Origin: Candidatus Woesearchaeota archaeon
Lineage (GTDB): Archaea > Nanobdellota > Nanobdellia > Woesearchaeales > WJIZ01
NCBI GenBank assembly: GCA_018303125.1
Contig: JAGVYS010000003.1
Span: forward strand, 637 to 64,636
Length of the DNA stretch: 64,000 bases
Reading direction: 5' to 3'
The notes under the pieces were generated by a model. It ran no database searches and had not been told where the DNA came from. It saw only the letters and a list, made by a program, of their open reading frames with translations. The position numbers and the translations under genes were made by a program. Shown here one piece after another: positions 10,416 through 49,794 of the stretch. Positions within the stretch are counted from its first letter, which is position 1. Each line of letters starts with the position of its first letter.

Positions 10416-11186
10416 ATGGGTTTCAGGGAAACAGCTATAAGGGCTGCCAAGGAAGCAGGCAAGATTCATCTTAAGTATTTCAGGAAAAAATTTGAGATAA
10501 GATATAAGGCATACAAGCATAATAGGGTAACTATCGCAGATACGGAAGCAGAGAAAAAGATTGTTTCAGAAATAAGGAAAGAGTACCCTTCGCATAATAT
10601 CCTGGCAGAAGAGGCAGAATATCCAAGGACAGGCTCAGAATACCTCTGGGTGATAGACCCTCTTGACGGCACGAACAATTTCAGCAAGGGCATTCCTGTT
10701 TTTTGCGTTTCAATAGCGCTTGCTAAAGATAATGAGCTGATTCTCGGTGTTATCTATGACCCGACAAGAAATGAGCTTTTTGTTGCTGAGAAGGGCAAAG
10801 GCGCATTCCTGAACGGCAAAAGAATAAAGGTTTCAGGAAGCTCACAGCTGCATGACAGCATTCTTCTGACAGGTTTTTACTATGACAGGGGAAAGCCAAT
10901 GTTCTCTACGCTTGCAAGCATGCAGGAATTTTTCCTGAAGGATGTAATAGGCATAAGGTGCACAGGCAGCGCAGCCCTTGATCTCTGCAGCGTAGCTTCC
11001 GGTAGGGTAGATGGCTTCTGGGAATTCAAGCTTAACGCATGGGACTTTGCTGCCGGAAAGCTTCTTGTGGAAGAAGCAAATGGAAAGGTTACCGGCAGGA
11101 AAGGGGAAGGAATTGCAATTGGTGAGTCTTACATAGTCGCATCAAATAAAAAAATCCATGGCAAAATGCTTGATATTCTCAAATAA
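10416..11186 (+). CDS. suhB: inositol monophosphatase / fructose-1,6-bisphosphatase family protein
   Basis: WVIDPLDGTNNF metal-binding motif and the EE...DP.DGT architecture of the IMPase/FBPase family. Confidence 0.85.
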   Translation: MGFRETAIRAAKEAGKIHLKYFRKKFEIRYKAYKHNRVTIADTEAEKKIVSEIRKEYPSHNILAEEAEYPRTGSEYLWVIDPLDGTNNFSKGIPVFCVSIALAKDNELILGVIYDPTRNELFVAEKGKGAFLNGKRIKVSGSSQLHDSILLTGFYYDRGKPMFSTLASMQEFFLKDVIGIRCTGSAALDLCSVASGRVDGFWEFKLNAWDFAAGKLLVEEANGKVTGRKGEGIAIGESYIVASNKKIHGKMLDILK

Positions 11187-11189
11187 TAT

Positions 11190-11230
11190 GCTATTTATTT
11201 TCTATATTAAAAATAATTAAGGAAAAAATA
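11190..11230 (+). repeat. copy 1 of a ~40-bp AT-rich direct repeat (GCTATTTATTTTCTATATTAAAAATAATTAAGGAAAAAA)
   Basis: Near-identical copies at 11730-11770 and 12805-12845, all in the same orientation. Confidence 0.85.
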
Positions 11231-11710: not shown

Positions 11711-11729
11711 GTATTTATATTTATTGTGC

Positions 11730-11770
11730 TGCTATTTACTTTCTATATTGAAAATAATTAAGGAAAAAAA
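11730..11770 (+). repeat. copy 2 of the ~40-bp direct repeat
   Basis: GCTATTTACTTTCTATATTGAAAATAATTAAGGAAAAAAA; lies between the toxin-antitoxin pair and the nucleotidyltransferase/HEPN-like pair. Confidence 0.85.
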
Positions 11771-12789: not shown

Positions 12790-12804
12790 GTTGTACATTT
12801 TATT

Positions 12805-12845
12805 GCTATTTTCTTTCTATATTGAAAATAATTAAGGAAAAAAAT
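12805..12845 (+). repeat. copy 3 of the ~40-bp direct repeat
   Basis: GCTATTTTCTTTCTATATTGAAAATAATTAAGGAAAAAAA; sits at the junction with the GC-rich block. Confidence 0.85.
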
Positions 12846-12918: not shown

Positions 12919-13284
12919 TTAGGTGGCGCTTTCGTCCTTAACTAAGCGAATTTCTTCGACTTCCGGAGATGGCGCTGTGTCATCCTGCCAAGTAGCAATG
13001 CAGCCTGCCTCTGCAAATAGAGTAATCCTGCACTCCTCCCCTGTAGCCTTAAACCCGTGCCACACCTCTGCAGGGATAACTAAGACCTGTCCAGCCATAA
13101 TCTTTTCATTCGTTCCGCTCTCTTTAAGGAGATTACATGTTCCTTTCTGCACGGCGAATATTTTGACGCCGTTGTTCTTATGCAGCTCTATCCTCTGCTC
13201 AGGAGTGAGAGTTATGACCTTTACATCAAACCCAGTAAGGCGTGATAACATCTCTGAAACGATTTTCGTTAGTTTGAAACTCAT
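12919..13284 (-). CDS. cupin-domain protein
   Basis: The two-His/Glu cupin region (...GQVLVIPAEVWHGFKATGEE...); GC-rich, first gene of the compositionally distinct block. Confidence 0.6.
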   Translation of the reverse strand: MSFKLTKIVSEMLSRLTGFDVKVITLTPEQRIELHKNNGVKIFAVQKGTCNLLKESGTNEKIMAGQVLVIPAEVWHGFKATGEECRITLFAEAGCIATWQDDTAPSPEVEEIRLVKDESAT

Positions 13285-13561
13285 AAGTACCTCGTTAGGT
13301 TAATCAGCCAGTAACACAAGGTATTCTGGCCAATCGTTTAATGTTGTTGAGCTCATTCCTCCTTGTCCGCCTGTCTTTTTGCCTTTCGGCAAGCATTTTC
13401 AGCCTTTTTCGGCGTGGTGGTTTTTTGAGCCTTTTGTGATTACCATTTCTTTTCCATCTCTCTTTTTTTTCGTGATTTTTCATTGCTTTTTTGTATCCGA
13501 CCCGCACAAGGATGCTACCTCACTGGATAGCAATTAATCCTTGCTGGGGCTGGAGAATTGG

Positions 13562-14464
13562 TTAGACGTCGCAGAGCTTGATTGCCTGTGCGAGTCCCTT
13601 CTTTGCGTCTCCTGTCGGGATGAACTCGTGGCCGACGAAGCCTTTGTAACCGACATCCACAAGGGCTCGCATCACCGCAGGGTAGCTAATCTCTTGTGCA
13701 TTTGGATCCAGTTCCCCTCTTCCCGGGCATCCCGCAGTGTGGACATGGCCAAGCAAGGCAGCGCATTGGCGTATGCGCCGGATGACATCTCCATGCATGA
13801 CTTGGACATGGTAGATGTCAAACAGTAACCGAACCCAAGGGGAATTTACATAGGTGACAATCTCGGCGCAGACAGCAAGATCGTTTCCCCAATATCCTGG
13901 GTGGCCTTTCATTGGGTGAGTGTTGTCACGCGTGTTCAGATGCTCCAAGCACACTACCACCTTTTTTTGCTCAGCGAGAGACACCAGTTTTTTCAAGCCA
14001 ACTACGCACGTTTTGATGCCTTCGGCGACACCGATTTCGTCACCAAGCGGTTCTGTCGGGGAAGTCTCGCTCCCATCGAACTTGCGTCCGTATCCAGTGA
14101 ACACCACCGTAGCCGGAAATCCAGCATCTCCAAGGGATTTGATGTTCTCACCGACCTTCGCGATGAGCGCTTCATGGTTCGCACGGTCGTTCCACCCGCG
14201 CACGAAAGGAGGCTCTTTGTCCTTGATGGCAACAGGCAAACCAATGGCGCAGATCAAGCCATGCTTCTCGAGCACAGGAAAATCCGCAGGCGAAACCAGT
14301 TCTACGCTCTTTGCCCCAAGTCGCTTTGCGTTCTGGCAGAGCTCATCAAGGGTCATTTTTCCATCCCCGGTGAAGCACCACCCAGCAACTGAGTGGTTTA
14401 TCCTGTCTTTGAGTTTTGTTTTTTTATTCATGATGTTTAATGATTTGATTTTTCTCCCAAGCAC
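13562..14464 (-). CDS. xylose-isomerase-like TIM-barrel sugar-phosphate isomerase/epimerase (hydroxypyruvate-isomerase-like)
   Basis: 300-aa TIM-barrel pattern (VCLEHLN, HVHTAGCPGRGELD...GHEFIP); GC ~55-58%. The start could instead be the internal Met at 14431. Confidence 0.7.
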   Translation of the reverse strand: MLGRKIKSLNIMNKKTKLKDRINHSVAGWCFTGDGKMTLDELCQNAKRLGAKSVELVSPADFPVLEKHGLICAIGLPVAIKDKEPPFVRGWNDRANHEALIAKVGENIKSLGDAGFPATVVFTGYGRKFDGSETSPTEPLGDEIGVAEGIKTCVVGLKKLVSLAEQKKVVVCLEHLNTRDNTHPMKGHPGYWGNDLAVCAEIVTYVNSPWVRLLFDIYHVQVMHGDVIRRIRQCAALLGHVHTAGCPGRGELDPNAQEISYPAVMRALVDVGYKGFVGHEFIPTGDAKKGLAQAIKLCDV

Positions 14465-14855
14465 CTTAGCTATTGATGCCTGAGTCTTGGAAAGCCCAAA
14501 CTGATTTGTCCAAGCTATCCGCTTGCCCTCACGCGAATGAGAACAAGTGAGTTGTTAGCAACTCATGGCAACGCCCACTCATGCAGACTTGGGCGTTGTT
14601 GATGAACTGCTTTTGGGTTACCAGCCCGAATAGGTAATATATCTATTGAAACTCTTTTACGAGAATTTTCTGTTGCATTTCTGACATTTTACTTCTGTTG
14701 TGCCTTCCGAGTCACCTTTTAGAGAGACCACAAGGAATTGCGCAGTCAAGCAGCAATCGCACCTGCCGTCTCCCGAAAGGATGTGAATAGTACCATTTCC
14801 ACAGATAAGAATTGGACTAGGTTTTTCGTTCATAACCTCTCCTTTGATACACAGG

Positions 14856-16313
14856 TTATTGTTTTCCGAGACTCTTTCTTATGGCTGTCCAGCCGTCGAA
14901 TCTTTCAACGACCTGAGTGGGAATCCAAGAGGGTTTGATGGGCTTCAGCCTGCAGAGATGCTCCTGAATTTCCCCTACTCCTCTCTTAGTTGCGCTGGCA
15001 AGTGCGGCAATGAGCGCACCCTTGGCACAATTGAAGCCGCTGCCTTCTGCCTTGAGCACCTCTAATTTTCTGCCATTCGCCAGTTGGTATATCAAGCCCT
15101 GGATGATGGAAGAGTTAGCCAAGTCACCTGTAAGGCAGACTTTGGTGATGCCTGCGTCCAGCATAGGGATAGCCCTCTCCCACATCCCGAAGGTAATGGA
15201 CTGAAGGACGCTGATTGCCCAGTCGTTGAGTGCTGCATCCGAAGGCGCGTTGTGGACAGTGAACCCAGTATTAGTGGGCAAAAACCGCTCGAGAAGGGTA
15301 TCATCCAGATAGAAGAATGGCTTGCCACTCATTGCTAGCCTGTCGAGCGTCTTGTCCACATTATCATTGGATTTAGTTTTTGCCTTGATAGCGACTCGCA
15401 TGCACCCCTTGAAGGATGTCCACGCCAAGCCACTGTTGACAAGGATAGTGAGCAGGAAGACCTTGCCGAAGTCGTCGAAACGGTGATACTGGCCATCATG
15501 CGTCCACGAGTCATTGGTTGCAGTGCCAGTTCCTGACGAGCCAAAAGATAGGGTTACGGCATCATTCGGAGAGCCAAGCCCTGTTTTGCCGGAATGGTTG
15601 TCTGCCAGAGGAGAGTGATAAACGCATTGGCTTCCCAATCCAAGTGATCCTGCAAATTCCGTGTTGCAGTTTCCAACAACATTTCCCGTAGCCACCACTT
15701 CTGGAATGATTTCGGGGTTTAGGCCTAGCGCCCTAAAGACCTCTACAGCCACTTTCCCATCCCTGGTGAGGATGTTATTGCACATTCCGTCTGACCTGCT
15801 GAGCACCAACTTGCCTGTCAGCAGATACCCAAGATAGTCCGCAAGAGTGCATATCCATCTGACTTTTTTCCAGACATCCGGCATTTTTTTCGAGAACCAG
15901 TATGCCTTTGCCAGGATCAAGCCAGAATAGACATCGTTTCCTGTAATCCCCCTGATATCTGCTTTTCCCTTAATCTCATCAACCATGTCGGCAGCACGTT
16001 CATCACACCAGAGGACTGCCCCAGCATGCACAGGTGCATAATCGACGTCCAAGAGAACAAGGGAATGTTGAAACTGTCCAACGCACAGGTGTGTTACTGC
16101 CTTGGCTTTTTCCCCAAGAATGCCACGAAGAGTCTCAGCCAATTTTGAGATGTCAAATTCATGTCGCTTCTCAGGGAGGTTTCCCACTTTAGGCGTTGCG
16201 ATTGAAGCGCCATTTGTGAGACCGGTTGTGCTGTCATAGAAGACAGCTGCACAGGATGTTGTGCCGAAATCTATCCCGGCAACAACTCCACTTACATTTA
16301 TTTTCTTTTTCAT
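14856..16313 (-). CDS. FGGY-family carbohydrate kinase (xylulokinase/rhamnulokinase-like)
   Basis: N-terminal VVAGIDFGTTSCAAVFYD (the DxGTT ASKHA motif), 485 aa. Confidence 0.8.
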   Translation of the reverse strand: MKKKINVSGVVAGIDFGTTSCAAVFYDSTTGLTNGASIATPKVGNLPEKRHEFDISKLAETLRGILGEKAKAVTHLCVGQFQHSLVLLDVDYAPVHAGAVLWCDERAADMVDEIKGKADIRGITGNDVYSGLILAKAYWFSKKMPDVWKKVRWICTLADYLGYLLTGKLVLSRSDGMCNNILTRDGKVAVEVFRALGLNPEIIPEVVATGNVVGNCNTEFAGSLGLGSQCVYHSPLADNHSGKTGLGSPNDAVTLSFGSSGTGTATNDSWTHDGQYHRFDDFGKVFLLTILVNSGLAWTSFKGCMRVAIKAKTKSNDNVDKTLDRLAMSGKPFFYLDDTLLERFLPTNTGFTVHNAPSDAALNDWAISVLQSITFGMWERAIPMLDAGITKVCLTGDLANSSIIQGLIYQLANGRKLEVLKAEGSGFNCAKGALIAALASATKRGVGEIQEHLCRLKPIKPSWIPTQVVERFDGWTAIRKSLGKQ

Positions 16314-16413
16314 TTTTATTTTATTTGTTTAAACTGAAGTCCAATCCCTTCCCAGAGGAAAATCTCCCCAGAAGAAATTCCAATGGAAATGGAAAGGGCT
16401 TGGAGGTAATGAT

Positions 16414-17601
16414 TCAATTGATGCTGGAGATGTCCACTTTGGCGCCGCCCTGCTCTGCACTCAACAAGGATGCTTGCAGAACACGTTGAGTGTGCATTGT
16501 GGACTGGATCGTTGCAAAAGTGTCCGTATGCAATGGTTTCTGTCCAGCCACTTTGAGGAGGAATTCCAGCAGCAGGAAGATGAAGGTGTGCTCATACCCG
16601 ATGTTGTGTCCCTCTGGCCAGCAATTACTCACGTAGGGGTGACCCTTTTGAGAAACGTCGATTGTTTTCCAGCCTCGTGTCAGCTTGTTCTCGGTGTAGT
16701 CCACCCAATGCAATTCAGTGAGGCTTTCGAGACTCCATGTCAATCTCCCTTTGGTGCCGTCAATCTCGATGAGATTATCGTTGTTGCTTCCAGCGGACGT
16801 TCGTGTTGCCTCGAACGTGGCAATGAGACCCTTCTTCGATCGGCCATTGAACAACGAGATGTCATCGACATCGCTCGCAAGCGTCTTTGGGACATCTGCT
16901 GATTTTTCGTTCCATTCAGGGTTTGGTCGTTGCTGCCAGACAGTTTGCGTGTAGCCACCGCTCACCGACTCCAACTCGTCCTGACAGAGCAACACGAACA
17001 GGTCGATGATGTGCGCATTGAGATCACCATGCGCACCAGATCCGCAGATGTCTTTCAAGAACCGCCACACCCTTGGGCAACTTTCGTCACCCCATTGCTG
17101 GAGATATTTAGCGCGGAAGCGCAGGATTTTCCCAATCAATGTGATGAACTGCAACAGGGCGAATACCACTGCAGGGGTAAAGCGGTAATTGTGCCAGACC
17201 GCATTATGCACTCCTTTATCGGAGGCAGTTTTCGCTGCCTGAACCATCCGGCTAGCCCCTTGCAGGGTGTTTGAGAGGGGCTTCTCTGTCAATGTGTGCT
17301 TTCCTACCTCCAAAGCACTCACAGCGATGTCTGCGTGGCTGTCGTTGGAGGTTGCAACGTCCACCAGATGAATTTCAGCGTTGTCGAAGACATACTTCGG
17401 ATCGGTTGTCCAATTCTGCCATCCCTGTTCTCTAGCGAACTTTTCAACCGCATCTTCTCTTCGTCCCACCACCGTGTGGAGGACTACTTCGAATGGCGTT
17501 TCTTCTGGGAAAAAATACCCGACTTGCCGAAGCGCATTACTATGCGCCCGTCCCATAAAACCGTGACCATACATGGCCACATTTAGTTTAGGTTTACTCA
17601 T
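16414..17601 (-). CDS. Gfo/Idh/MocA-family NAD(P)-dependent oxidoreductase
   Basis: N-terminal Rossmann region (LNVAMYGHGFMGRAHSNAL) plus a C-terminal alpha/beta domain, 395 aa. Confidence 0.75.
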   Translation of the reverse strand: MSKPKLNVAMYGHGFMGRAHSNALRQVGYFFPEETPFEVVLHTVVGRREDAVEKFAREQGWQNWTTDPKYVFDNAEIHLVDVATSNDSHADIAVSALEVGKHTLTEKPLSNTLQGASRMVQAAKTASDKGVHNAVWHNYRFTPAVVFALLQFITLIGKILRFRAKYLQQWGDESCPRVWRFLKDICGSGAHGDLNAHIIDLFVLLCQDELESVSGGYTQTVWQQRPNPEWNEKSADVPKTLASDVDDISLFNGRSKKGLIATFEATRTSAGSNNDNLIEIDGTKGRLTWSLESLTELHWVDYTENKLTRGWKTIDVSQKGHPYVSNCWPEGHNIGYEHTFIFLLLEFLLKVAGQKPLHTDTFATIQSTMHTQRVLQASLLSAEQGGAKVDISSIN

Positions 17602-17956
17602 GGATTAGTTGTCTTTCTTCCCGGAATTGTTTTTTCTGAGAAGCCCATCACGTGTTTGGGCCTTAATTGCTTTCCAAGATGTTCCGGGTTGCCATCAAGA
17701 AAAGCAATCATATCCTCCTTCAAACAGGAAGGAGAAATTTCAGCATAGCTGCTGAAGGCAGCACACTCCAATGAAGCAAGTGGGCTGTTATTCAACATCT
17801 AATTGCCAGCCATGGGACGCACTCACAGCCTGTAAGTGCACGACCATCCCAAAACAATATGGTCTATCCCATGCTGGCAAAGTTAATGCTCGCCATATTC
17901 ATCCCTTTGCCTTATGGCAGCGTTTGGCTTAGGGAATCCTATGGCTGGCCGATTGT

Positions 17957-19042
17957 TCAGTTATTCTTGGCCATGGCCTCTTGATGTGAGATACCAGAAG
18001 TGAAGAGGATGTTGCTTCTGGCATGGCGTCCTGCGACCACGGCGGCGTTATCTTCGTCTTTGTCACTTGTTAAATGCAACGCTAGCATTTTTCCGTCCTC
18101 GTGCTCAAGCGCAACTTCATCGAAACTGAACTCTCCTTCTCTGAGAGCGACCTGGACGTCTCGATAATCTCCGTCACTCCAATGCAGAGAGATGTACTCG
18201 TCACCCCTTCTTCCACTCGGGTCGTCCAAGTGATGAGGAGAGTGTGTCGAACGAACACCGCCGTGCTGGCACTTCGCACCCTTTAGGTGTTCAGCATCGA
18301 TTGACCCGGGCGCTTCCTCGTTGATGAACCGTACACCATCGCCATTCAGCATGCCCTGTTTGATGAAATGAGAGTGGTCATAGAGGTACCCAAACCCATC
18401 ATCTGCCACAGCTTTGTGCAACTCAACTGCACTGTAGGGTTCCCACGCAGATTCTCCCTTATGAATTTCCAACCTGGCCTTCTTGATTCCGTGGGCCTTG
18501 AAGATACCAACAGCTTGCCGAATGCGGCCAGCTTCCCAATCCAAGCGAGACTTCCGTTCATCATCTGGCAGACCAGGGAACTCACGAAGTGAATCTTCGT
18601 AGATGGACGAGCCGCAGAACCAATTGATCTTGGTGATTCCAGCGGCCTGACAGCCAGCGGCGATGAGCTGGATTTCATCCATGGTAGCAGCCTGAATGGC
18701 TTGGGCATCAGGCTTTCCATTGGCCTCTTTCCACATGTGGACAGGCAGAAATTGCTTGAAGCCACTGTGAATCGATGTCGCATTCAGGCACATCGTGATA
18801 GGGTGTACGCTGACGCTGAGAACAGCAAGCTCGCCAACAGTTCCTTTCCATTCGTCTAGGCATTCCTTTCCACTCCTCTGGCCATTACCATTGACGAAAT
18901 GGTGGTATGGGAAGTGATCCCGTCCAGGTTGGATGCCATCAAAAACCAAGTTGCCGTCCGGCATCTTTGTTCGCCTGAGCTTGCTAACTAACTCAGCGAG
19001 AGTCCATGCAGCGAACTGCAATGATACTAGTGTGAATTTCAT
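17957..19042 (-). CDS. xylose-isomerase-like TIM-barrel protein (putative), possibly secreted
   Basis: 361 aa, GC-rich, hydrophobic N-terminus (MKFTLVSLQFAAWTLA); resembles sugar-phosphate isomerase/epimerase family proteins. Confidence 0.5.
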   Translation of the reverse strand: MKFTLVSLQFAAWTLAELVSKLRRTKMPDGNLVFDGIQPGRDHFPYHHFVNGNGQRSGKECLDEWKGTVGELAVLSVSVHPITMCLNATSIHSGFKQFLPVHMWKEANGKPDAQAIQAATMDEIQLIAAGCQAAGITKINWFCGSSIYEDSLREFPGLPDDERKSRLDWEAGRIRQAVGIFKAHGIKKARLEIHKGESAWEPYSAVELHKAVADDGFGYLYDHSHFIKQGMLNGDGVRFINEEAPGSIDAEHLKGAKCQHGGVRSTHSPHHLDDPSGRRGDEYISLHWSDGDYRDVQVALREGEFSFDEVALEHEDGKMLALHLTSDKDEDNAAVVAGRHARSNILFTSGISHQEAMAKNN

Positions 19043-19425
19043 AGTTTTGCTTTCCTTCTAGACAATATTGCAGACAACCTTTAGCCTTTTTCCTTTTTTA
19101 GCTTTAGTTGCCCCTACAAACTCTTTTCAGAGAACCGCCAGTTGTCTCTTCAGGCAGTTTTTGATCCACTCCCACATGCATAATGGGACTGGTAATTTTT
19201 CCGAGTGATTTCTCGAATTTTGCGAGTTTATTCTCGACGCCTTCAAACAAAGACGATTTTATCCATCTCATTCGAGACAGACTTTTTCAGTGTGTAACCA
19301 CTGAAGGCAGCCCTCAGATAATAGAGGCCAAGTAGGCATACTTTCTAAGGGCTGTTGTTCGGGGGTTAATTTAGTTACTTCTCCGAGCACCATTTCTGGT
19401 GAGTGGACTTATTATCGGATGTGGA

Positions 19426-20568
19426 TCAGGCAGCAACCTTCCACATTGCCTCGATGTTGGTGATGGAGAATCTGGCGTAGCCGATCGGATCCGCCCCAAA
19501 ATGGTGCAGATCATGTTCGGCGAACACCGTTTCACCATCCCATTGCCGCAAGATTTTGACAGCTTTTGCCAGATCCTCGGTGATCGTTGGTGAACCATCA
19601 CCTACTGCGAGGTCCCAATCCATCAGGACGGGCACATCAGCGGCGTGGACTTCTTTGCCGAGCAGTTGCTCCAGATTGACTGGCAGCATCTGACCTGAGT
19701 TGACATGCACGAACCCATCGAACAGACCTGCCTCATTGGTTCGCCTGGTGCCGTCCTCGACAGTTATGCCAGATGCCAACAGATGAGCCCATTCGTTATT
19801 GAGCCACAGACCCTTCCAGCCAAGCTCCTTGTTAACCTCGTTGCAGAACTTGATTGCCAACGCCAGCGTCGGGATGATATCGAGGACAGGGTCTCCAGGT
19901 TTGAACTCAATGTGCATCTTCCGTTCATGGCCTGTTTCGGTCTTCACCCGGCGCAGGACATTGACGATTCCGTCTCTTAGTTGACCCCACTTCTTCGATT
20001 TTGGAATCAATTCATTGGAAACCATGAGGTCCTTAGGGATGTTTTTGATGGGATTCCCATCTCCTGCCGGCCAGATGATGGTTTTTCCCTCTCCAAGCCC
20101 CTTCTCCTCGAACTCCAGTGCCAATGACACGGCCTCCACATGAAGATCCTCCGCCATCTGCCGACGATTGGCGTCAGGATGGAAGAACGCACCGAGCTCC
20201 GTCCCTGGATAGCCAAATGCAGGCGCAGTGAACGCCAACACTTTCGGGAAACGCCCAGAACGGATTCCCTTGACTAGGTTATCCTTGCCGATCGCGCCGG
20301 GCTTGTCAATGAGCTCGGAATACTGTGGTTGAGATGTTCTGATTTCCAATCCGATATGGAAGCTTGATCTCAGTTCGAGGCCAAGCTCTTCTCCAAGCGA
20401 CTTCACCTCCTTCAGACGGTCACTTACCTTGACGTAACCAGCTTTTGGATCACCTCCGCCGAACTTGAAGTTTGCAGGTCGTGGGTTTACGACCCATGAG
20501 GGCACTGAATGAATGATTTGCTTTGACATTGCTTTATCTCCTAAAGGAGCTCTTTTCCAGCCCTTCAT
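19426..20568 (-). CDS. xylose-isomerase / L-rhamnose-isomerase-like TIM-barrel sugar isomerase
   Basis: 380 aa; HIEFKPGDP resembles the xylose isomerase FAIEPKPNEP metal-site motif. Confidence 0.65.
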   Translation of the reverse strand: MKGWKRAPLGDKAMSKQIIHSVPSWVVNPRPANFKFGGGDPKAGYVKVSDRLKEVKSLGEELGLELRSSFHIGLEIRTSQPQYSELIDKPGAIGKDNLVKGIRSGRFPKVLAFTAPAFGYPGTELGAFFHPDANRRQMAEDLHVEAVSLALEFEEKGLGEGKTIIWPAGDGNPIKNIPKDLMVSNELIPKSKKWGQLRDGIVNVLRRVKTETGHERKMHIEFKPGDPVLDIIPTLALAIKFCNEVNKELGWKGLWLNNEWAHLLASGITVEDGTRRTNEAGLFDGFVHVNSGQMLPVNLEQLLGKEVHAADVPVLMDWDLAVGDGSPTITEDLAKAVKILRQWDGETVFAEHDLHHFGADPIGYARFSITNIEAMWKVAA

Positions 20569-20848
20569 ATGTTAAGGCCGTTCTGATCCAGCTCCACATA
20601 AGACCAGAGAGATTTATCGATAACCTCTTTAGAGGGAATGATGCCAAATCCCACAAAGCATCATTTTTTCACAGCAGCTCTCGAGTTGAGGCTGTCTTAG
20701 AAGAACATTCCAATGTTCTTCCGTTGTGCTTACAAGCACACGTCCTCCCACCTTGGTAGATAGGAGGAAGCGTGACTGCAAACGAAACAAAGGTAGCTCT
20801 CCGAACTAACTTTCAAAGAGAAAATCCTTTGTTTTACGTTACCGCCAA

Positions 20849-21847
20849 TCACGTAGCCAGCGGGAACTTCCTGTTGAACTTCCGCATAGCTTTGACGCAA
20901 GTCTCCGATTGCTCACGGGCATTTGGATTGAAGCACAAATCCATTGCTCGCCAGTCATAACCCTCGGGCAGACCAGTGAAGAACTCTTCGGCAGCCGGAA
21001 ACAACTTGTCGAATTTCAGAATGCCTGCGCCGAATTCATCGTGAGTAGAGGTTCCTGGACCATTCGGAGACTCTCGGTGTAGTTCCCCCTTGGTGTCAAT
21101 CCAGTGGACGTGCTTCACAAACGGACCGATTTCACGCATGAACCCAATCTGTTCCTCGCCTTTTGTGTTGGTGTGATCTTTTGCGAAGGTGTCGATTTCG
21201 CCGATCTGTTCTGCACCCATGCAACCTACGGTGTGGCCGTGACAAGTGTCATACAGTGAACCAACATTTTTGACGCCGGCATCTGAGAGGGCCTTGTGAA
21301 ACCTCACCACATCACGTGGTTTATTGATACCAAACATTGGCTCAAACTCAATGACGATTGTGAGGCCTTCGTTTCCGGCAATTTCCCCAAAGCGCTTGAA
21401 TCTTTTGACATAGACCTCAATTGCACCTTCGACACCAATACCTTGCGGGCCATAGATACGGCTCGGAGGATCGATGAAGTCCATGCGCATACGCGGCGTA
21501 TTTAATCCGCCTTTGCCGCACCATTTGGCGTTTTTGATCACTGCGCTCTCGAGACGGTCAGTGTCGCTGAAGAAGCTGAGATCCTGATTCCAGAAATCAC
21601 CGGCGACCCCGCTTATTGTCATGCCGTGTTCTTCCAGCAAGGCCAAGAACAAAGCAATGGATGTAGTGCTTCCGCAGTTATTCGGATCTGGGTGTGGACC
21701 CTTCCCAAAGAGTTCAACCCCGTCGAACCCGAGCCCGTGCTTTTTCCCGAGGAACTTGATTATGGAAACAATGTCCATTTGTTGGGTCTTCAAGAACAAA
21801 AAGGCCCATAGCCCCATAGATATGCGATAGTTAGGCTTTTTAGCCAT
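20849..21847 (-). CDS. sugar-phosphate isomerase/epimerase (xylose-isomerase-like TIM barrel)
   Basis: 332 aa with the GxELF, IEFEP and HWID features of the family. Confidence 0.65.
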   Translation of the reverse strand: MAKKPNYRISMGLWAFLFLKTQQMDIVSIIKFLGKKHGLGFDGVELFGKGPHPDPNNCGSTTSIALFLALLEEHGMTISGVAGDFWNQDLSFFSDTDRLESAVIKNAKWCGKGGLNTPRMRMDFIDPPSRIYGPQGIGVEGAIEVYVKRFKRFGEIAGNEGLTIVIEFEPMFGINKPRDVVRFHKALSDAGVKNVGSLYDTCHGHTVGCMGAEQIGEIDTFAKDHTNTKGEEQIGFMREIGPFVKHVHWIDTKGELHRESPNGPGTSTHDEFGAGILKFDKLFPAAEEFFTGLPEGYDWRAMDLCFNPNAREQSETCVKAMRKFNRKFPLAT

Positions 21848-22284
21848 AGTTTACCTCATTTATTACGTTGTTTTTTTCTTTCCCAGATTTTTAGTTATTA
21901 ACTCATTATGTACTTGAGCCTTTCATTGCCCTGACCCAGGAAGTTAAACAGGGCAAGAAATTGAATTTGGAGCCGCCGCCTAAACAGTTAACCCCCAAAG
22001 GTTAATCAATGCACATATGTCAGGGGCGGCTCCAAAGCTGGTGAGGGGCGAGCACAAAACACCTCATTGAACGGGGTGCTTTAGTAACCTATGTGCCCGC
22101 CGCCTCGAAATTAGTGGAGTCACAACCAAGCCTTACTCATAAGTTCCCGTGTATGGTTCAGCCTAGCTATGACCCCAAAAAAGAGTGAGGAGCCGCGTGG
22201 CTTAGCCGCCTTCATCATTCTTCCTTTGGGGAACTGGTAAGAAGAACGAATTCTGCTCTAATGGAGAGCACGGCTCCTCGAAAA

Positions 22285-22362
22285 TGGTGCACCCGGCGAG
22301 GCTCGAACTCGCAACCAGCTCGCTTAAAAGGCGGCTGCTCTTCTAAATTGAGCTACGGGCGC
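22285..22362 (-). tRNA. bacterial-type tRNA-Lys(UUU)-like gene with encoded CCA and a 1-nt bulge in the anticodon stem (possible pseudo-tRNA)
   Basis: Reverse complement: GCGCCCG TA GCTC AATTTAGAA GAGC A GCCGC CTTTTAA GCG(A)GC TGGTT GCGAG TTCGAGC CTCGC CGGGTGC A CCA. Acceptor stem, D-arm and T-arm pair cleanly; the variable loop TGGTT resembles bacterial tRNA-Lys; an extra A disrupts the 3' anticodon stem. GC-rich, unlike the host tRNAs. Confidence 0.6.
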
Positions 22363-23828
22363 ATTAAAAATGGAGGGATGTAGGTCTAATAGACGCACTT
22401 CAAAAGCAATTCGTGCTTGAGCAACGCAATTGCCTTTTTAGCTCGCGGATGAGTACATCCCTCAAAAGGGCAAAGGAAAAACAGGGGAGATACAGGCGAC
22501 AAGTGCCTTCAGAGGAATCTGGGCTCCGACCTCCAGATAACTCCTTCGCTTTACCAGCACAACCCCCAGAAAGCCAAAAAGTGGAACCGTAGTGTGAGGC
22601 TGGTCAAAGAAGCATACTGGGGATATGCTCTTATTCCATTAACACCACGGCTCCACAGAAAGTAAATTGCCGGCCGCAGCTTATTTTCCAAAATAAGCGT
22701 GGATTTTTATGGTGTGGAACCATGAAAGTATCCACTTCTGCGACCGACAAAATGAAGGTAGCCCACCTGTCCACGTTTCTTATCCCCATGTTAAAGATAT
22801 CCTCGTCGGACAGTGGGCTACTAGAAAACAGCTAGCCAATATCCCCCAGTTACGCCGATCTCGGAGACGGCTGCAAAAGTAAAACCCGCATGACTTTTTC
22901 CCTCTCCTTGGTTGCCCCTAGCACCTGTCATGCGGGTTGTGGATTGATGGCAGCCTGGCCAGCCCTTACACCAAACCAAGGATATGGCTTTACCTCGATT
23001 TTTAAGAGCCGGCACAGGCTGCAAATTGACAGTCTGCATGAGTTTGCTGAGCCCTCTTCCTGAGCCTCATGCAGACTGTAGGTAGCCAAGCCATGTCTCC
23101 CTTTTGCATCGCCCATGATATCCTCCTATTTGGAGAAATGGCCGGCTGCCATAAATTCAAATTGTAGCCTAAATGATCCTGCCTCCTTTCCAAAAAGCAG
23201 CATATCACCCTACCATTTAGGCTACGTGGAAGCAACACCACTAGCGCCCGCGCAGAGAACTTCCCTTGCAAGGGCAGTGCTGCCGAATTCTAGAACCTCC
23301 TTAAGAGTTCTGAGACTATTAATACCCGCCCCCTACTGCCACAACAGAATCTAGGGTGTTCCTAGTTGTCTCCTTTACACCCTTTCTGTTTGTGATATGC
23401 ACTGCTGAAAGCAGTACCCATATGACGATTATTATGGTCACAATTTCTTCTCCAAGGGTTGATTCTTGAAGCTATGCCTCCCACCCGTTAAAAAAGCACA
23501 GCCATGAACCTCCAGCTCCTTCCATGAGAAATTTTGGAGAAGTAGGAAATTCATTTGTTCTGAAAGAAAGCTACAGCTACACAAATTGATAGTTTTTGCT
23601 TCCTGAAAAACAGCAACTTGCCATTTTTCGCCCTTTTCCGCTTCTATGCTCTAAAAATCAAGGTTGCGTGGAAACACGTTTCTTTTCGAAAACAACCTTT
23701 TGTTTTTGAGCTAGCGTATCAGAATTCCCATTCCATAAAATTCCCTATATTAAGTGGAATCACAGGATGAAAATCCCGAAGGGTAGGTTATCAAACCATC
23801 AAGGCGATAGCCAAATCAAAAAATAAAT

Positions 23829-25637
23829 TTATGAACATGATATCAAGTCAAGCAGCTTCTTTCCTTTCTCTGTTAGGAAAATTACCTTTCTTATTCCGTT
23901 GCTGCTCTTCTCAGTCTCAACCCCTATTAGCTCCATTACGATGAAGTCATTTCTATATTGGTTGCATTTCCTTATGGAAATATCGCGAAGCTTTGAATAA
24001 AGCTCTGTTGTTGCCATCTTTCCTTTTTTCAGCTTCTTCAGGAAATCAAGGCTTCCGTCATTGTATTCTATGTAATTCTTTATGTTTTCTGTCTTGCGGG
24101 CATCCTCAATCTCCTTTTTCATCCTCTCATCATAGGGCAGGTCGGAGTAATCCTCCAAAGTATGCACTCCTGATGCATTTACAGTTGCTTTCAGCTTTGC
24201 AACCTCTATGCTCAATTTTCTTACCTTTACAGAATCATTGAATATCTTCAGCCTCTTGCCATCCTTCAGCTTTGACTCCATTCTTGCCTTTATGGCCTCA
24301 TCTTCTACATGGACATCCGAACGAGCAAGCGGCACCTTCACAAGGAAAGGCAGGTAATGCCTTTCTGAAAGCCTTACTATTGCCTGCCCGACAGGTATCA
24401 TGGAGAAATACTTGCTGTTTTCCCTTATCTGCATCAGCCTTGATATGGTCTCTACATCATTCGGCAAAATCTGCTGGAAAGCAATTGTTGTTGCGGAATT
24501 TCCGATAACAGTTTCTGATAATTTGGAGATATGCTGGTCAAGGCATATCATGCCTATGCCATATTCCCTTATTTCACGGTAAATCATGTCCGTTACAGAC
24601 TCATTGAGAAAATTTGTCCTGTTCCTTAGGAATATGTTATGCGCCTCATCCACCATTATCGCGCTGCTGAAACCAGAGGAAGATGGAGAGGATTTTTTCA
24701 TCTTGTATATGTAAGCAAGCAGGAATTCGCAGAAAAACTTCTTTTCAGGATTGTTCAGGCTGTGAAGCTCGAACAGCACTCTTTTGGAAAGCAACTCATC
24801 TATGCTTACCTCATACTGGCCACGGTAATTTATCGTTTCACCGAAATGTCCGAAAGTAAGAACATGCGCTATCCTTATGGCAGATGTCACCCATTCTGCC
24901 TCCCTTCCATGCTTAAGCCTCTGCCCCTCTGCCCTGCCCTCAAGCCTGTCCATTATGTTATACCATGTCGGGTAATTATCAGAGCCCTTATACACTCCAA
25001 AGTCACGGAAGGCCTCGTTAAGGACATCAGAAAGCAGCTTATGCACACCATAGCTCGCAAAGAAGCTTTCGGTTATCAAGTCACAAAGCATGTTAAGCCA
25101 TTCTTTTGGGTCAATCCCTTTCGGAGGCCTGTTTATGTTTATCCTGAAAAGATTCGCAATTTTTGAGTTTCCGACGGTAAAGCACAGCATTTCCTCATCC
25201 TCAAGCAAAAGCGGCCTGAAGCTCTTCTTCCAGTCAAAAATCCAGAAATTCTTCCCCTTCTCCATGAACTGCCTCGCTATTACGAAGCCAAGATTGGTTT
25301 TTCCTGAGCCTGACATGCCTGAAATGCATACGTGCCTTATCCATTCTTTCTCCCTGAGCCCGAATGGGTAGAACTCCTTGTCTGCATAAGTAACAGTTCC
25401 AAGTCTGTATTCTCCAGCAACAGCGCTTTTCTCAGGTGGCTCAAGCAGGACTTTTTCAGAAAGAAGGTGAGTATTGAGATGTTTTTCATAAAGAATCTTG
25501 AGGGCATGTTCCATCTCCAGCCTTTCATCATTGCTCTGGGAAAGGGCAAACTTTAGGTAAATCCTGTCTATTTTCTCGCCCAATACAGGACGCAGCCTTC
25601 TGCATATCTCTTCAGCGGTAAGTTCTCTCATATTCAC
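23829..25637 (-). CDS. HerA/FtsK-like P-loop ATPase (DUF87-type) with a C-terminal winged-helix region
   Basis: Walker A GMSGSGKTNL and Walker B IMVDEAHNIF; 602 aa; low GC, host-like. Confidence 0.7.
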   Translation of the reverse strand: MNMRELTAEEICRRLRPVLGEKIDRIYLKFALSQSNDERLEMEHALKILYEKHLNTHLLSEKVLLEPPEKSAVAGEYRLGTVTYADKEFYPFGLREKEWIRHVCISGMSGSGKTNLGFVIARQFMEKGKNFWIFDWKKSFRPLLLEDEEMLCFTVGNSKIANLFRININRPPKGIDPKEWLNMLCDLITESFFASYGVHKLLSDVLNEAFRDFGVYKGSDNYPTWYNIMDRLEGRAEGQRLKHGREAEWVTSAIRIAHVLTFGHFGETINYRGQYEVSIDELLSKRVLFELHSLNNPEKKFFCEFLLAYIYKMKKSSPSSSGFSSAIMVDEAHNIFLRNRTNFLNESVTDMIYREIREYGIGMICLDQHISKLSETVIGNSATTIAFQQILPNDVETISRLMQIRENSKYFSMIPVGQAIVRLSERHYLPFLVKVPLARSDVHVEDEAIKARMESKLKDGKRLKIFNDSVKVRKLSIEVAKLKATVNASGVHTLEDYSDLPYDERMKKEIEDARKTENIKNYIEYNDGSLDFLKKLKKGKMATTELYSKLRDISIRKCNQYRNDFIVMELIGVETEKSSNGIRKVIFLTEKGKKLLDLISCS

Positions 25638-26059
25638 TTAGAAAGTATGTCGCCCAGCAATGAAGCCCTGCTTTCCTTCTCCCTCATTTCCTGGATAATC
25701 TCTCTCATCTCTTTTTTAAGCAGTGCTATGTCCCTGAAGCAATTCAGTTTTTCCTGTACCTTGATCTCCTCTGCGTCTATGAGCTTCTTCCTGAACTCAA
25801 CAATCGCCCTCTGCAATTCCGCTGATGCATAATTATCAGGCGGCATCATGTTGCTTATGGCGTTTTTCATCTTCTCAATGTCAGAAAGCATCTCAGAATG
25901 AAGCTTTTCCCTTACCTTTATCTGCTCACTTATCTCATCAACAGCTTCCCTTAAGGAAGCCATCTTTGTTTCAGATATGCTGTCAAGGAGCATTTCTGCG
26001 GAATTGCCTTTATTCTCAAGCTCATCCAGCATATTTTTGAATAGTTTTGACTCTTCCAA
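25634..26059 (-). CDS. coiled-coil protein, co-operonic partner of the HerA-like ATPase
   Basis: 141 aa rich in E/K/L heptads; 4-nt overlap with the ATPase start. Confidence 0.5.
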   Translation of the reverse strand: MEESKLFKNMLDELENKGNSAEMLLDSISETKMASLREAVDEISEQIKVREKLHSEMLSDIEKMKNAISNMMPPDNYASAELQRAIVEFRKKLIDAEEIKVQEKLNCFRDIALLKKEMREIIQEMREKESRASLLGDILSK

Positions 26060-26159
26060 TCTTTCTACCCCAAATTTTTTACTAATAAGTAGTAGAAATT
26101 ATTTAGATTTATAAAGCTTTCGTCGCTAATTGGGAAAGATTTAAAACCTTCATTTCTAC

Positions 26160-45942: not shown

Positions 45943-45956
45943 TCTTATTCCTTTAC

Positions 45957-46041
45957 GGGCCGTACGAGATTCGAACTCGCGACCCCCTGATTGCTTCTGC
46001 CTTAAAAGTCAGGTGCTCTAGCCAGGCTGAGCTAACGGCCC
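45957..46041 (-). tRNA. tRNA-Lys(UUU) with an ~11-nt intron in the anticodon loop
   Basis: Reverse complement: GGGCCGT TA GCTC AGCCTGGCTA GAGC A CCTGA CTTTTA[AGGCAGAAGCA]A TCAGG GGGTC GCGAG TTCGAAT CTCGT ACGGCCC. Confidence 0.75.
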
Positions 46042-46044
46042 AAA

Positions 46045-49468: not shown

Positions 49469-49574
49469 CTATTTGTGTTCTCTGTACAGCTGAAACATCG
49501 CTCGAAAGTCTGGGTTTTTCGGCATTCTGTTTTTCAGGCGCCATTCCTTGTTAATCATCTTGCTTGAAAATAAT

Positions 49575-49657
49575 GCAGGGTAGCGGATTCGAACCGCTGA
49601 ACGCACTAAGCGACAAGGCCCTGAACCTTGCAGGTTTGACCGCTTCCTTAACCCTGC
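49575..49657 (-). tRNA. tRNA-Leu(CAG), class II
   Basis: Reverse complement: GCAGGGT TA AGG AAGCGGTCAAA CCT G CAAGG TTCAGGG CCTTG, long variable arm, then AGCGG TTCGAAT CCGCT ACCCTGC. Confidence 0.75.
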
Positions 49658-49698
49658 GTTGCGCTTTTTTCATTTCCACATTAAACTATGAAGGGAAT

Positions 49699-49794
49699 GC
49701 GAGGGGAGGGATTTGAACCCACGGACCCACTAAGGGACAGGATTTCCTGATTTACTTAAGTCCTGCGCGTTTGGCCAGGCTTCGCTACCCTCGC
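49699..49794 (-). tRNA. tRNA-Leu(UAA)-like, class II, with a ~11-12 nt anticodon-loop intron
   Basis: Reverse complement: GCGAGGG TA GCG AAGCCTGGCCAAA CGC G CAGGA CTTAAG[TAAATCAGGAA]A TCCTG, long variable arm, then GTGGG TTCAAAT CCCTC CCCTCGC. There is one U-U mismatch in the T-stem. Confidence 0.6.

Follow-up and report, generated by a model that had tools for sequence, protein, structure and literature searches.

FtsK, SpoIIIE and the Streptomyces TraB protein are membrane-anchored motors whose C-terminal winged helix reads orienting DNA motifs. To our knowledge, every solved relative of the ATPase described here (HerA, VirB4, TrwB, DndH and TdpA) is a ring translocase on DNA. In archaea, CedD and TedD are HerA/FtsK-superfamily ATPases acting on DNA; Sulfolobales require CedD to import DNA and encode it apart from cedA and cedB, and a transmembrane domain is missing from some CedD orthologues (PMC11868833, PMC11823120). 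Here, we analyzed a 64,000-nt stretch of the genome of a Candidatus Woesearchaeota archaeon (assembly GCA_018303125.1, contig JAGVYS010000003.1, positions 637 to 64,636 of the forward strand; hereafter the window) and focused on a tightly linked two-gene operon encoding a small coiled-coil protein followed by a soluble ATPase with a C-terminal winged helix. Judged by its sequence, the ATPase belongs to a separate, uncharacterized family of the FtsK-HerA superfamily that fails the thresholds of every named family tested, and the pair probably constitutes a chromosomal two-gene module conserved across the Nanoarchaeota lineage (Woese- and Pacearchaeota). The pair is a distinct two-component branch of a well-known superfamily and as such less a surprise than a sound lead in DPANN cell biology.

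Both genes lie on the minus strand (Table 1) and meet at a junction that reads AAGTGAATATG. Starting the ATPase at its GTG codon results in a 4-nt overlap (GTGA) with the coiled-coil gene. An alternative ATG start two codons downstream yields a protein of 600 aa and a 2-nt gap, and is the start used for an identical protein at NCBI (P0001, "ATP-binding protein, Candidatus Woesearchaeota archaeon"). Either arrangement, overlapped or spaced by 2 nt, would be compatible with translational coupling. The TTG start of the partner gene is supported by its alignment with the ATG start of the closest homologue, found in locus L001, and by a GGGG located 10 nt upstream. The pair shares its upstream intergenic region with a divergently oriented adenylosuccinate lyase gene, and a TATA-like element within this region is one that we infer to be a candidate promoter. 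Homology searches returned hundreds of ATPase homologues at E<1e-188 with 47-73% identity, all of those bearing a name being Woesearchaeota or Nanoarchaeota, and 13 direct homologues of the coiled-coil protein. We consider both genes real because of these ATPase homologues on the one hand and, on the other, because of the partner homologues and the match to a partner profile beside the ATPase in 77 of 81 loci.

The distribution of the pair was determined using a motif-seeded scan in which exact motifs were required and one genome per GTDB species was included. At least 190 species genomes encode the ATPase. The best 80 of the 190 matching loci were examined, and all of them were labelled as Woese-, Pace- or Nanoarchaeota except for a few doubtful bin labels. 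To assess pairing, open reading frames (ORFs) were called in these 80 loci, three further loci and the window, yielding a full ATPase ORF in 81 sources, including two duplicates of locus L002. Exactly one member of the coiled-coil family was encoded upstream of the ATPase and on the same strand in 77 of these 81 sources, with E-values mostly between 1e-36 and 1e-47. The partner directly adjoins the ATPase gene in ca. 55 loci, with a gap of -20 to +16 nt. Four loci showed no upstream partner: two of them lie at a contig edge and two have DnaJ upstream. All-against-all ORF clustering found no gene family besides the partner in more than 8 of 79 loci. Further, none of the following was conserved near the pair across the 79 loci: NurA, mre11, rad50, integrase, relaxase, defence effector, type IV secretion system (T4SS), membrane or channel genes, or CedA-, CedB- and pilin-like genes. 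The ORFs inserted between partner and ATPase at some loci (e.g. L009, L013, L020, L030 and L033) were unrelated to one another.

To place the ATPase, its sequence was compared with curated families. DUF87 was the only Pfam family above its cut-off (30.3 bits vs 23.2). DUF87 membership, invariant motifs and a Foldseek probability of 1.00 to HerA, VirB4, TrwB and DndH-C put the protein in the FtsK-HerA superfamily. The best NCBIfam model, CedD (NF053655), reached 68.7 bits (E=3.8e-19) against a cut-off of 600, and the two HerA equivalogs reached 36.7 bits vs 800 (NF040937) and 19.2 vs 970 (NF040819). TrwB_AAD_bind scored 17 bits vs a Pfam cut-off of 20.5, P-loop_TraG was also sub-threshold, the TraC and TraD models reached only E ~1e-3, and Pfam FtsK_SpoIIIE did not match the window ATPase. 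We treat the ATPase as a separate family because the curated thresholds of HerA, CedD, VirB4/VirD4 and FtsK were all failed. PADLOC returned weak matches to mad8 (E=2.9e-12) and to several defence HerA models (E 1e-5 to 1e-10), PHROG matches were partial or generic and BFVD matches were generic. Small viral packaging ATPases of the A32/PRD1 type are proteins of ca. 200-350 aa encoded beside jelly-roll capsid genes; they gave query-normalized template-modelling scores (TM-scores) of only 0.16-0.27 against the ATPase, which falls outside this group. No relatives of the DPANN proteins or of the sister clade described below were found in IMG/VR, and GenBank phages contained none; a viral origin was rejected on these grounds and given the generic character of the PHROG and BFVD matches. 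Bacterial plasmid relatives share 23-27% identity, are much larger and adjoin nucleases, and they say little about this family. Public labels of these ATPases read only "DUF87 domain-containing" or "ATP-binding", and searches of the literature on DUF8104, arCOG00280 and DPANN in connection with HerA or FtsK yielded no description of the pair.

Comparison with described systems shows where the window ATPase agrees with them and where it departs. The best match in a PDB sequence search was HerA (4d2i, E=2.5e-9; also 9x1l/9x1m), with only the Walker B-to-sensor half aligning, and Foldseek likewise returned HerA 4d2i (E=2e-13). Archaeal HerA (S. solfataricus 4d2i; Thermococcus HerA-NurA 9x1l/9x1m) thus has the P-loop core in common with the window ATPase, and the Walker B, arginine-rich and sensor segments align. 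In contrast, alignment is confined to the C-terminal half of the core, NCBIfam scores are 20-40 times under the cut-offs, HerA is partnered by the NurA nuclease instead of a coiled-coil protein, and the window ATPase additionally carries a helical domain at its N-terminus, an alpha-helical insertion and a winged helix at its C-terminus. The best structural superpositions were obtained for DndH-C (7es4), VirB4 (4ag6) and the VirD4 protein TrwB, with target-normalized TM-scores of 0.72, 0.69 and ca. 0.6, respectively. All three have an alpha-helical insertion in the nucleotide-binding domain like that of the ATPase, but sequence identity is 12-15% and no T4SS, dnd or phosphorothioation gene lies near the pair. 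CedD and TedD, the VirD4-like ATPases of crenarchaeal Ced/Ted DNA import, resemble the window ATPase in being archaeal members of the superfamily and, for CedD, in being the best-scoring curated family. They differ in that the window ATPase has no transmembrane helix, no Ced/Ted genes were seen nearby, its lineage is DPANN and not Thermoproteota, and the winged helix and the coiled-coil partner are features of its own. FtsK, SpoIIIE and TraB share the order of an FtsK-HerA motor followed by a C-terminal winged helix, whereas the window ATPase has no membrane anchor and its motor core is nearer to HerA and VirB4 than to FtsK. Its modelled winged helix may be likened to the FtsK gamma domain in its C-terminal position. 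Finally, Foldseek matches with probability 1.0 extended to defence HerAs, the solved structures matched including SIR2-HerA, DUF4297-HerA, TdpAB and DndH. The likeness of SIR2-HerA, DUF4297-HerA, TdpAB and the MADS protein Mad8 consists of the HerA-like motor fold and the weak PADLOC matches, but the window pair comes without an effector gene, is not patchily distributed and matches a single one of the eight MADS genes.

The AlphaFold2 (AF2) model of the ATPase (predicted local distance difference test score (pLDDT) 81.8, predicted TM-score (pTM) 0.66) showed, from N- to C-terminus, a helical domain, a beta hairpin, a P-loop core with a five-helix insertion, two long linker helices and a winged helix. 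Residue conservation was read from an alignment of 30 homologues. The N-terminal helical domain has no Pfam match and corresponds to no known family; its residues L15, P17, G20, L65, P67 and P68 are invariant. It is common to the DPANN proteins and the sister clade, whose matches begin at query residue 7-10. In the Walker A motif, G107, M108, G110, S111, G112, K113 and T114 are invariant and S109 is present in at least 90% of sequences. The helices of the insertion (177-191, 196-212, 225-238, 245-261 and 263-269) are placed by AF2 between core strands. D330, E331, A332 and H333 of Walker B are likewise invariant. The segment that follows, YREIREYG...CLDQH, aligns with RIAREGRKFG...SQR of Sulfolobus HerA (4d2i), and R354, E355, R357, E358, G360, D367, Q368 and H369 are invariant. 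By comparison with the FtsK-HerA literature, this segment is a candidate to supply an arginine finger and a sensor-1 glutamine. The winged helix gave weak matches to HTH_45 (E=0.005) and to a PHROG transcription regulator (E=8e-4). S554 and R556 of its recognition helix and G581 and K584 of its wing are invariant, and K557 is found in at least 90% of sequences. Further, a winged-helix profile built from the sister clade matched 200 of 200 DPANN-type proteins tested. The ATPase has no transmembrane segment (maximum Kyte-Doolittle hydropathy 0.95), and neither protein of the pair contains a hydrophobic segment.

The partner, modelled by AF2 without an alignment, consists of two long helices (2-71 and 77-140; pLDDT 81). 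Its C-terminal helix carries the conserved motif EK-x3-(W/F)-x-D-x3-LK-x-E(L/M)RE, and E102, D109, L113, E116 and R118 are invariant in 78 sequences, with R49 and L52 conserved in at least 95%. The sharp conservation of this charged motif suggests that the helix offers a specific binding surface and is not simply a generic coiled coil. Scans of Pfam, NCBIfam and PADLOC with the partner returned low-complexity coiled-coil noise only. A weak precomputed tag, PF26406/DUF8104, is attached to three partner relatives and is absent from our local Pfam results for them and for the window protein. A profile built from the window partner picks up the partners of both the DPANN and the sister ATPases.

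Most of these results are in good agreement with a previous sequence-only reading of the window. The two overlapping minus-strand ORFs of 141 and 602 aa (4-nt overlap) lie where it had put them, and the operon it had proposed is borne out by the junction and by the 77 of 81 paired loci. Both nucleotide-binding motifs that it had named, Walker A GMSGSGKT and Walker B MVDEAHN, were found with their core residues invariant in the 30-sequence alignment. Its placement of the ATPase in the HerA/VirB4/FtsK group is in line with the DUF87 score and with the structural matches to HerA, VirB4 and TrwB, and the winged helix-turn-helix-like tail it had suspected is supported by the AF2 topology of residues 529-601 and by the weak HTH_45 and PHROG matches. 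The same holds for its description of the partner as a small coiled-coil protein and not a NurA-type nuclease, given the upstream gene family at 77 of 81 loci and the lack of a nearby nurA.

Table 1. Positions of the gene pair, its domains and motifs, and neighboring features in the window.
Feature	Position	Strand	Basis or description
Coiled-coil partner gene	25634..26059	minus	141 aa, TTG start; ORF list
FtsK-HerA-superfamily ATPase gene (DUF87)	23829..25637	minus	602 aa from GTG; soluble, C-terminal winged helix
N-terminal helical domain, aa 1-75	25413..25637	minus	AF2 helices 8-19, 21-31 and 36-54; ends in conserved LLEPP motif
Walker A GMSGSGKT, aa 107-114	25296..25319	minus	sequence
All-alpha insertion in ATPase core, aa 177-283	24789..25109	minus	AF2; as in VirB4, TrwB and DndH
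Walker B AIMVDEAHN, aa 326-334	24636..24662	minus	sequence
YREIREYG...CLDQH, aa 353-369, candidate arginine finger and sensor-1 glutamine	24531..24581	minus	alignment to 4d2i
C-terminal winged helix-turn-helix, aa 529-601	23835..24053	minus	AF2 topology H-H-H-beta-beta
Intergenic region, 100 nt, divergent, common to the pair and the adenylosuccinate lyase gene	26060..26159	.	sequence reading
TATA-like TTTATAAAT, candidate promoter	26107-26115	minus	ca. 50 nt upstream of the partner TTG start
GC-rich sugar-metabolism island	12919-21847		four xylose-isomerase-like TIM-barrel proteins, FGGY kinase, GFO/IDH/MocA oxidoreductase, cupin

The genomic context of the pair was compared with that of its closest relatives. 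Because synteny is kept on both sides, the pair belongs to the native chromosomal backbone and not to the neighboring block rich in guanine and cytosine (GC). The divergent adenylosuccinate lyase (ASL, purB) gene upstream of the pair is retained in synteny in L001, L004 and L005. Beyond the island, the genes for inositol monophosphatase (suhB-like), purC, purE, pyrG, carB, NUDIX and carA follow one another as they do downstream of the pair in L001. The pair has a GC content of ca. 0.43-0.44, like the rest of the window (ca. 0.43), compared with 0.48-0.52 in the block at ca. 13-22 kb. Between the window and L001, identity amounts to 69.8% for the ATPase, 67.1% for ASL, 60.4% for inositol monophosphatase and 59.8% for the coiled-coil partner, and ASL identity tracks ATPase identity across L001, L004 and L005. 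In sequence terms, this looks like joint vertical inheritance under strong constraint. The block itself is a sugar-metabolism insertion in a variable spot. It contains no integrase, replication or mobility gene, and L001, with an ATPase 70% identical, lacks it at the syntenic position; the spacer of ca. 3 kb found there is replaced in the window by the segment from 11.2 to 23.8 kb. Membership of the pair in the block was rejected given the absence of mobility genes from the block and the conserved synteny of the backbone to either side. The sequence-only reading had placed the pair next to the ORF-free, tRNA-containing edge of the block, which agrees with the ORF-free stretch of ca. 2 kb and the tRNA-Leu(TAA) gene at 22285-22362 found there. 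No attachment-site repeats derived from this tRNA-Leu were found around the island, three 48-nt AT-rich copies at its far edge (see below) being the sole repeats there. Strings of small same-strand ORFs without Pfam matches lie directly downstream of the ATPase in L002 (11982-21902) and L001 (7488-9614). Variation or insertion seems to recur at the spot downstream of the pair.

A search of representatives clustered at 50% identity returned 3315 matches at E<=1e-3, 305 of them at E<=1e-30, and brought up a more diverse sister clade. Its ATPases (29-39% identity, ca. 650-700 aa) have the same N-terminal domain, motor and winged helix but add a C-terminal PD-(D/E)xK nuclease domain that was seen in the sequences and gave weak matches to PDDEXK_9 and MTES_1575. 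A custom profile of this nuclease domain matched 117 of 118 sister proteins vs none of 200 DPANN-type proteins. The upstream gene is homologous to the DPANN partner in three tested examples (E 1e-10 to 1e-13), and the partner is present in 59 of the 63 sister loci with room upstream. Partner, N-terminal domain, motor and winged helix are common to both modules, whereas the fused nuclease and the company of Orc1/Cdc6 and tyrosine integrase genes set the sister clade apart from the DPANN form, which has none of these. Orc1/Cdc6 occurs in 26 of 67 sister loci, often immediately downstream, tyrosine integrase in 20 of 67, and a 119-aa protein upstream in 21 of 55. By their gene content, the sister loci look like integrated archaeal elements. 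The module in L084-L166, which are metagenome and genome contigs, looks like an unnamed family of such elements; one sister example is labelled Lokiarchaeia, two are labelled as bacterial bins, and one locus lies among methyltransferases. The sister-clade elements fit the earlier observation that archaeal "dark matter" islands frequently carry HerA-like ATPases (arCOG00280) and Orc/Cdc6 genes (PMC4158269), and the clade is probably part of the arCOG00280 "HerA-like helicase" group. Profiles derived from the sister loci (Orc1/Cdc6, integrase, 119-aa protein) matched nothing in the 64-kb window and, in the DPANN loci, only an XerA-sized recombinase in five related loci.

In a neighbor-joining tree of the motor region, midpoint-rooted and without an outgroup, all 20 DPANN-type proteins grouped in a single clade lying seven nodes deep within nuclease-bearing lineages, and the internal diversity of this clade was much lower (0.38 vs 0.65). 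This tentatively suggests capture of the module from an element followed by loss of the nuclease.

Starting from the observed reality of the two genes, their pairing, distribution, domain architecture, family relations and genomic context, we propose the following function, which together with conservation of the module in this lineage forms a single explanation that we consider probable. Most likely, the ATPase would be a soluble hexameric translocase or remodeler of double-stranded DNA (dsDNA) that is targeted by its winged helix, regulated or tethered by its partner and domesticated from a mobile-element module. We favor dsDNA as the putative substrate because the solved relatives are DNA ring translocases, the sister clade fuses a nuclease and the winged helix keeps basic residues. 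By analogy to these relatives, the ATPase would form a ring and pump or remodel dsDNA. The winged helix would load or orient it on DNA, like the gamma domain of FtsK/SpoIIIE and the winged helix-turn-helix of Streptomyces TraB. The coiled-coil protein may act as an obligate adaptor or regulator by tethering the motor or gating it, and the N-terminal helical domain of the ATPase and the partner would be the natural candidates for these roles. The DPANN module would then represent the nuclease-less branch of a wider module, composed of the partner and an ATPase-winged helix-PD-(D/E)xK protein, that resides on integrated elements together with genes for Orc1/Cdc6 and tyrosine integrases. The host probably acquired the DPANN module from an element of this kind and retained it for chromosome maintenance. 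Candidate host processes would be segregation and dimer resolution, processing of recombination or replication intermediates, and CedD-like DNA uptake (PMC11868833, PMC11823120).

Several points weigh against this explanation. Structure prediction was run on monomers only, the partner model has a pTM of 0.35, and a fold search with it gave nothing significant or specific. Near-universality in the lineage is unproven, since the scan called for exact motifs, the best 80 of 190 matching loci were examined and metagenome-assembled genomes are incomplete. In ca. 22 loci, one small ORF (55-350 aa) separates the partner and ATPase genes. In several genomes the spot just downstream of the ATPase is variable, so that the pair could also flag a site prone to insertion or border an old element. 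For want of an outgroup in the tree, the choice between loss of the nuclease in DPANN and its gain in other lineages is tentative.

Other explanations were weighed against the same data. DPANN cells depend on other cells, and the motor could be a Ced/Ted-like import ATPase, a functional analogue of CedD or TedD, that draws DNA from host or neighboring cells. CedD being the best NCBIfam model speaks for this, as does the fact that CedD orthologues can lack a transmembrane domain and that cedD is encoded away from the other ced genes. However, the score is far under the cut-off, the window ATPase has no transmembrane segment, no CedA-, CedB- or pilin-like gene is conserved nearby, and no winged helix or coiled-coil partner is reported for CedD (PMC11868833, PMC11823120); we regard this possibility as unlikely. 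Slightly less probable still is a role in HerA-type defence against phages or plasmids, with the coiled-coil protein as sensor or effector adaptor. The mad8 and defence HerA matches, the structural relatives SIR2-HerA, DUF4297-HerA, TdpAB and DndH, and the sister clade, whose fused nuclease is a typical defence layout and one of whose loci lies among methyltransferases, would be compatible with defence. Yet the DPANN form carries no nuclease (0 of 200) and no conserved effector neighbor, and lineage-wide retention with housekeeping-like divergence is unlike patchy defence systems. MADS, moreover, is an eight-gene operon (bioRxiv 10.1101/2023.03.30.534895), of which only one gene is matched, weakly, and no mad neighbors are present. 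A further notch lower, we find it improbable that the pair belongs to an integrated or conjugative element, be it the GC-rich block or a cryptic one, and serves its transfer, partition or replication. Such an origin would account for the element-borne sister clade with its Orc1/Cdc6 and integrases, for the variable region downstream of the ATPase (small ORFs in L001 and L002, island and tRNA-Leu in the window) and for the finding that arCOG00280 HerA-like ATPases are among the commonest families in archaeal dark-matter islands (PMC4158269). It is at odds with an island that is devoted to sugar metabolism and has no integrase or replication gene, with the lack of any Orc1/Cdc6-like or integrase-like ORF in the 64-kb window, with a backbone that is syntenic on both sides and a GC content and divergence like those of housekeeping genes, and with the absence of a conserved mobile-element gene across 79 loci and of relatives in IMG/VR or GenBank phages.

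The sequence-only reading had suggested that the pair might belong to an integrated or conjugative element or act in defence, which is not sustained at this locus: the block has no integrase, the backbone is syntenic and no mobile or defence neighbor is conserved, and recurrence in at least 190 genomes and housekeeping-like divergence also oppose it. Its mobile-element idea finds no support for the window pair and holds for the sister clade, with its fused nuclease, Orc1/Cdc6 and integrases. Two observations had been named as speaking against the suggestion, conservation of the pair across relatives and orthology of the ATPase to HerA; the former was found and the latter was not, HerA scores being 19-37 bits vs 800-970. 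The ATPase is very improbable as the canonical HerA of the lineage, resecting double-strand-break ends together with NurA, Mre11 and Rad50 encoded away from it. The closest solved matches by sequence and Foldseek are indeed archaeal HerAs (4d2i, 9x1l/9x1m), but the equivalog scores (36.7 vs 800 and 19.2 vs 970 bits) are low, similarity is confined to the Walker B-to-sensor half and no nurA, mre11 or rad50 gene lies nearby in 79 loci. In addition, the N-terminal part of HerA is a HAS barrel, whereas that of the window ATPase is modelled as helices and a single beta hairpin. A canonical HerA working with NurA was rejected on model scores and gene context. The faintest prospect of all is that the motor acts on protein. 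EccC and EssC are FtsK-like ATPases with WXG100 hairpin substrates and, by analogy to type VII secretion, the ATPase might export or unfold its helical-hairpin partner; the arrangement, a gene for a small two-helix protein immediately preceding that of an FtsK-HerA-type ATPase, would fit. Membrane segments are missing from both proteins, however, no channel genes are conserved nearby, and the conserved winged helix and the fused nuclease of the sister clade point to DNA.

The pair matters in organisms about whose DNA segregation, repair and acquisition little is established: Woese- and Pacearchaeota have tiny genomes and are largely uncultured. A motor that is as conserved between relatives as nucleotide-biosynthesis enzymes and is paired with the same partner is a candidate for such a basic process. 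The pair defines an uncharacterized two-component branch of the FtsK-HerA superfamily annotated only as "DUF87" or "ATP-binding protein", and the nuclease-bearing sister on integrated elements makes it a testable case of a mobile-element gene pair recruited by its host. A bolder and rather doubtful version holds that an ancestor of Woese- and Pacearchaeota captured a DNA-pumping module, dropped the nuclease and made it an essential host machine, either an FtsK counterpart or an intercellular DNA motor. If true, the pair would represent the long-missing archaeal FtsK counterpart, a winged-helix-guided chromosome translocase tethered via its coiled-coil partner, or alternatively a motor moving DNA between ultra-small symbionts and other cells.

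Some further observations concern the surroundings of the pair. A tyrosine recombinase of ca. 277 aa is encoded ca. 3 kb upstream of the pair and on the same strand in L066, L071, L079, L080 and L081, two of which are labelled Pacearchaeota. Given the bacterial FtsK-Xer link, a recombinase beside the pair is suggestive, at 5 of 79 loci only. At the low-coordinate edge of the insert, three intergenic, AT-rich direct repeats of 48 nt (11182-11229, 11723-11770 and 12797-12844; 83-100% identical) were noted, which may be a repeated promoter or leader, or border repeats.

The ORF-free stretch between ATPase and island, which holds the tRNA-Leu(TAA) gene, extends from 21848 to 23828. Within it, ca. 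1 kb of sequence without ORFs and with ca. 50% GC (22400-23390) folds much more stably than its shuffled versions on either strand (z=-7.9 for the minus and -9.1 for the plus strand). Perfect inverted repeats of 12-14 bp with loops of 23-47 nt are located at 22883-22938, 23029-23079 and 23164-23225, and a further one at 21966-22036 lies just below the folded segment. Rfam recognized nothing in the stretch except the neighboring tRNA-Leu, and no similarity to the stretch was seen in the corresponding spacer of the closest relatives. The segment at 22400-23390 may correspond to a large structured RNA or to clustered hairpin repeats. Elsewhere in the window, ARAGORN called a tRNA with undetermined anticodon at 45955-46042 (Rfam tRNA, 57 bits) and a tRNA-Leu(CAG) at 49574-49657, near which Rfam instead placed a tRNA at 49698-49794. 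These discordant calls are probably intron-containing or atypical archaeal tRNAs.

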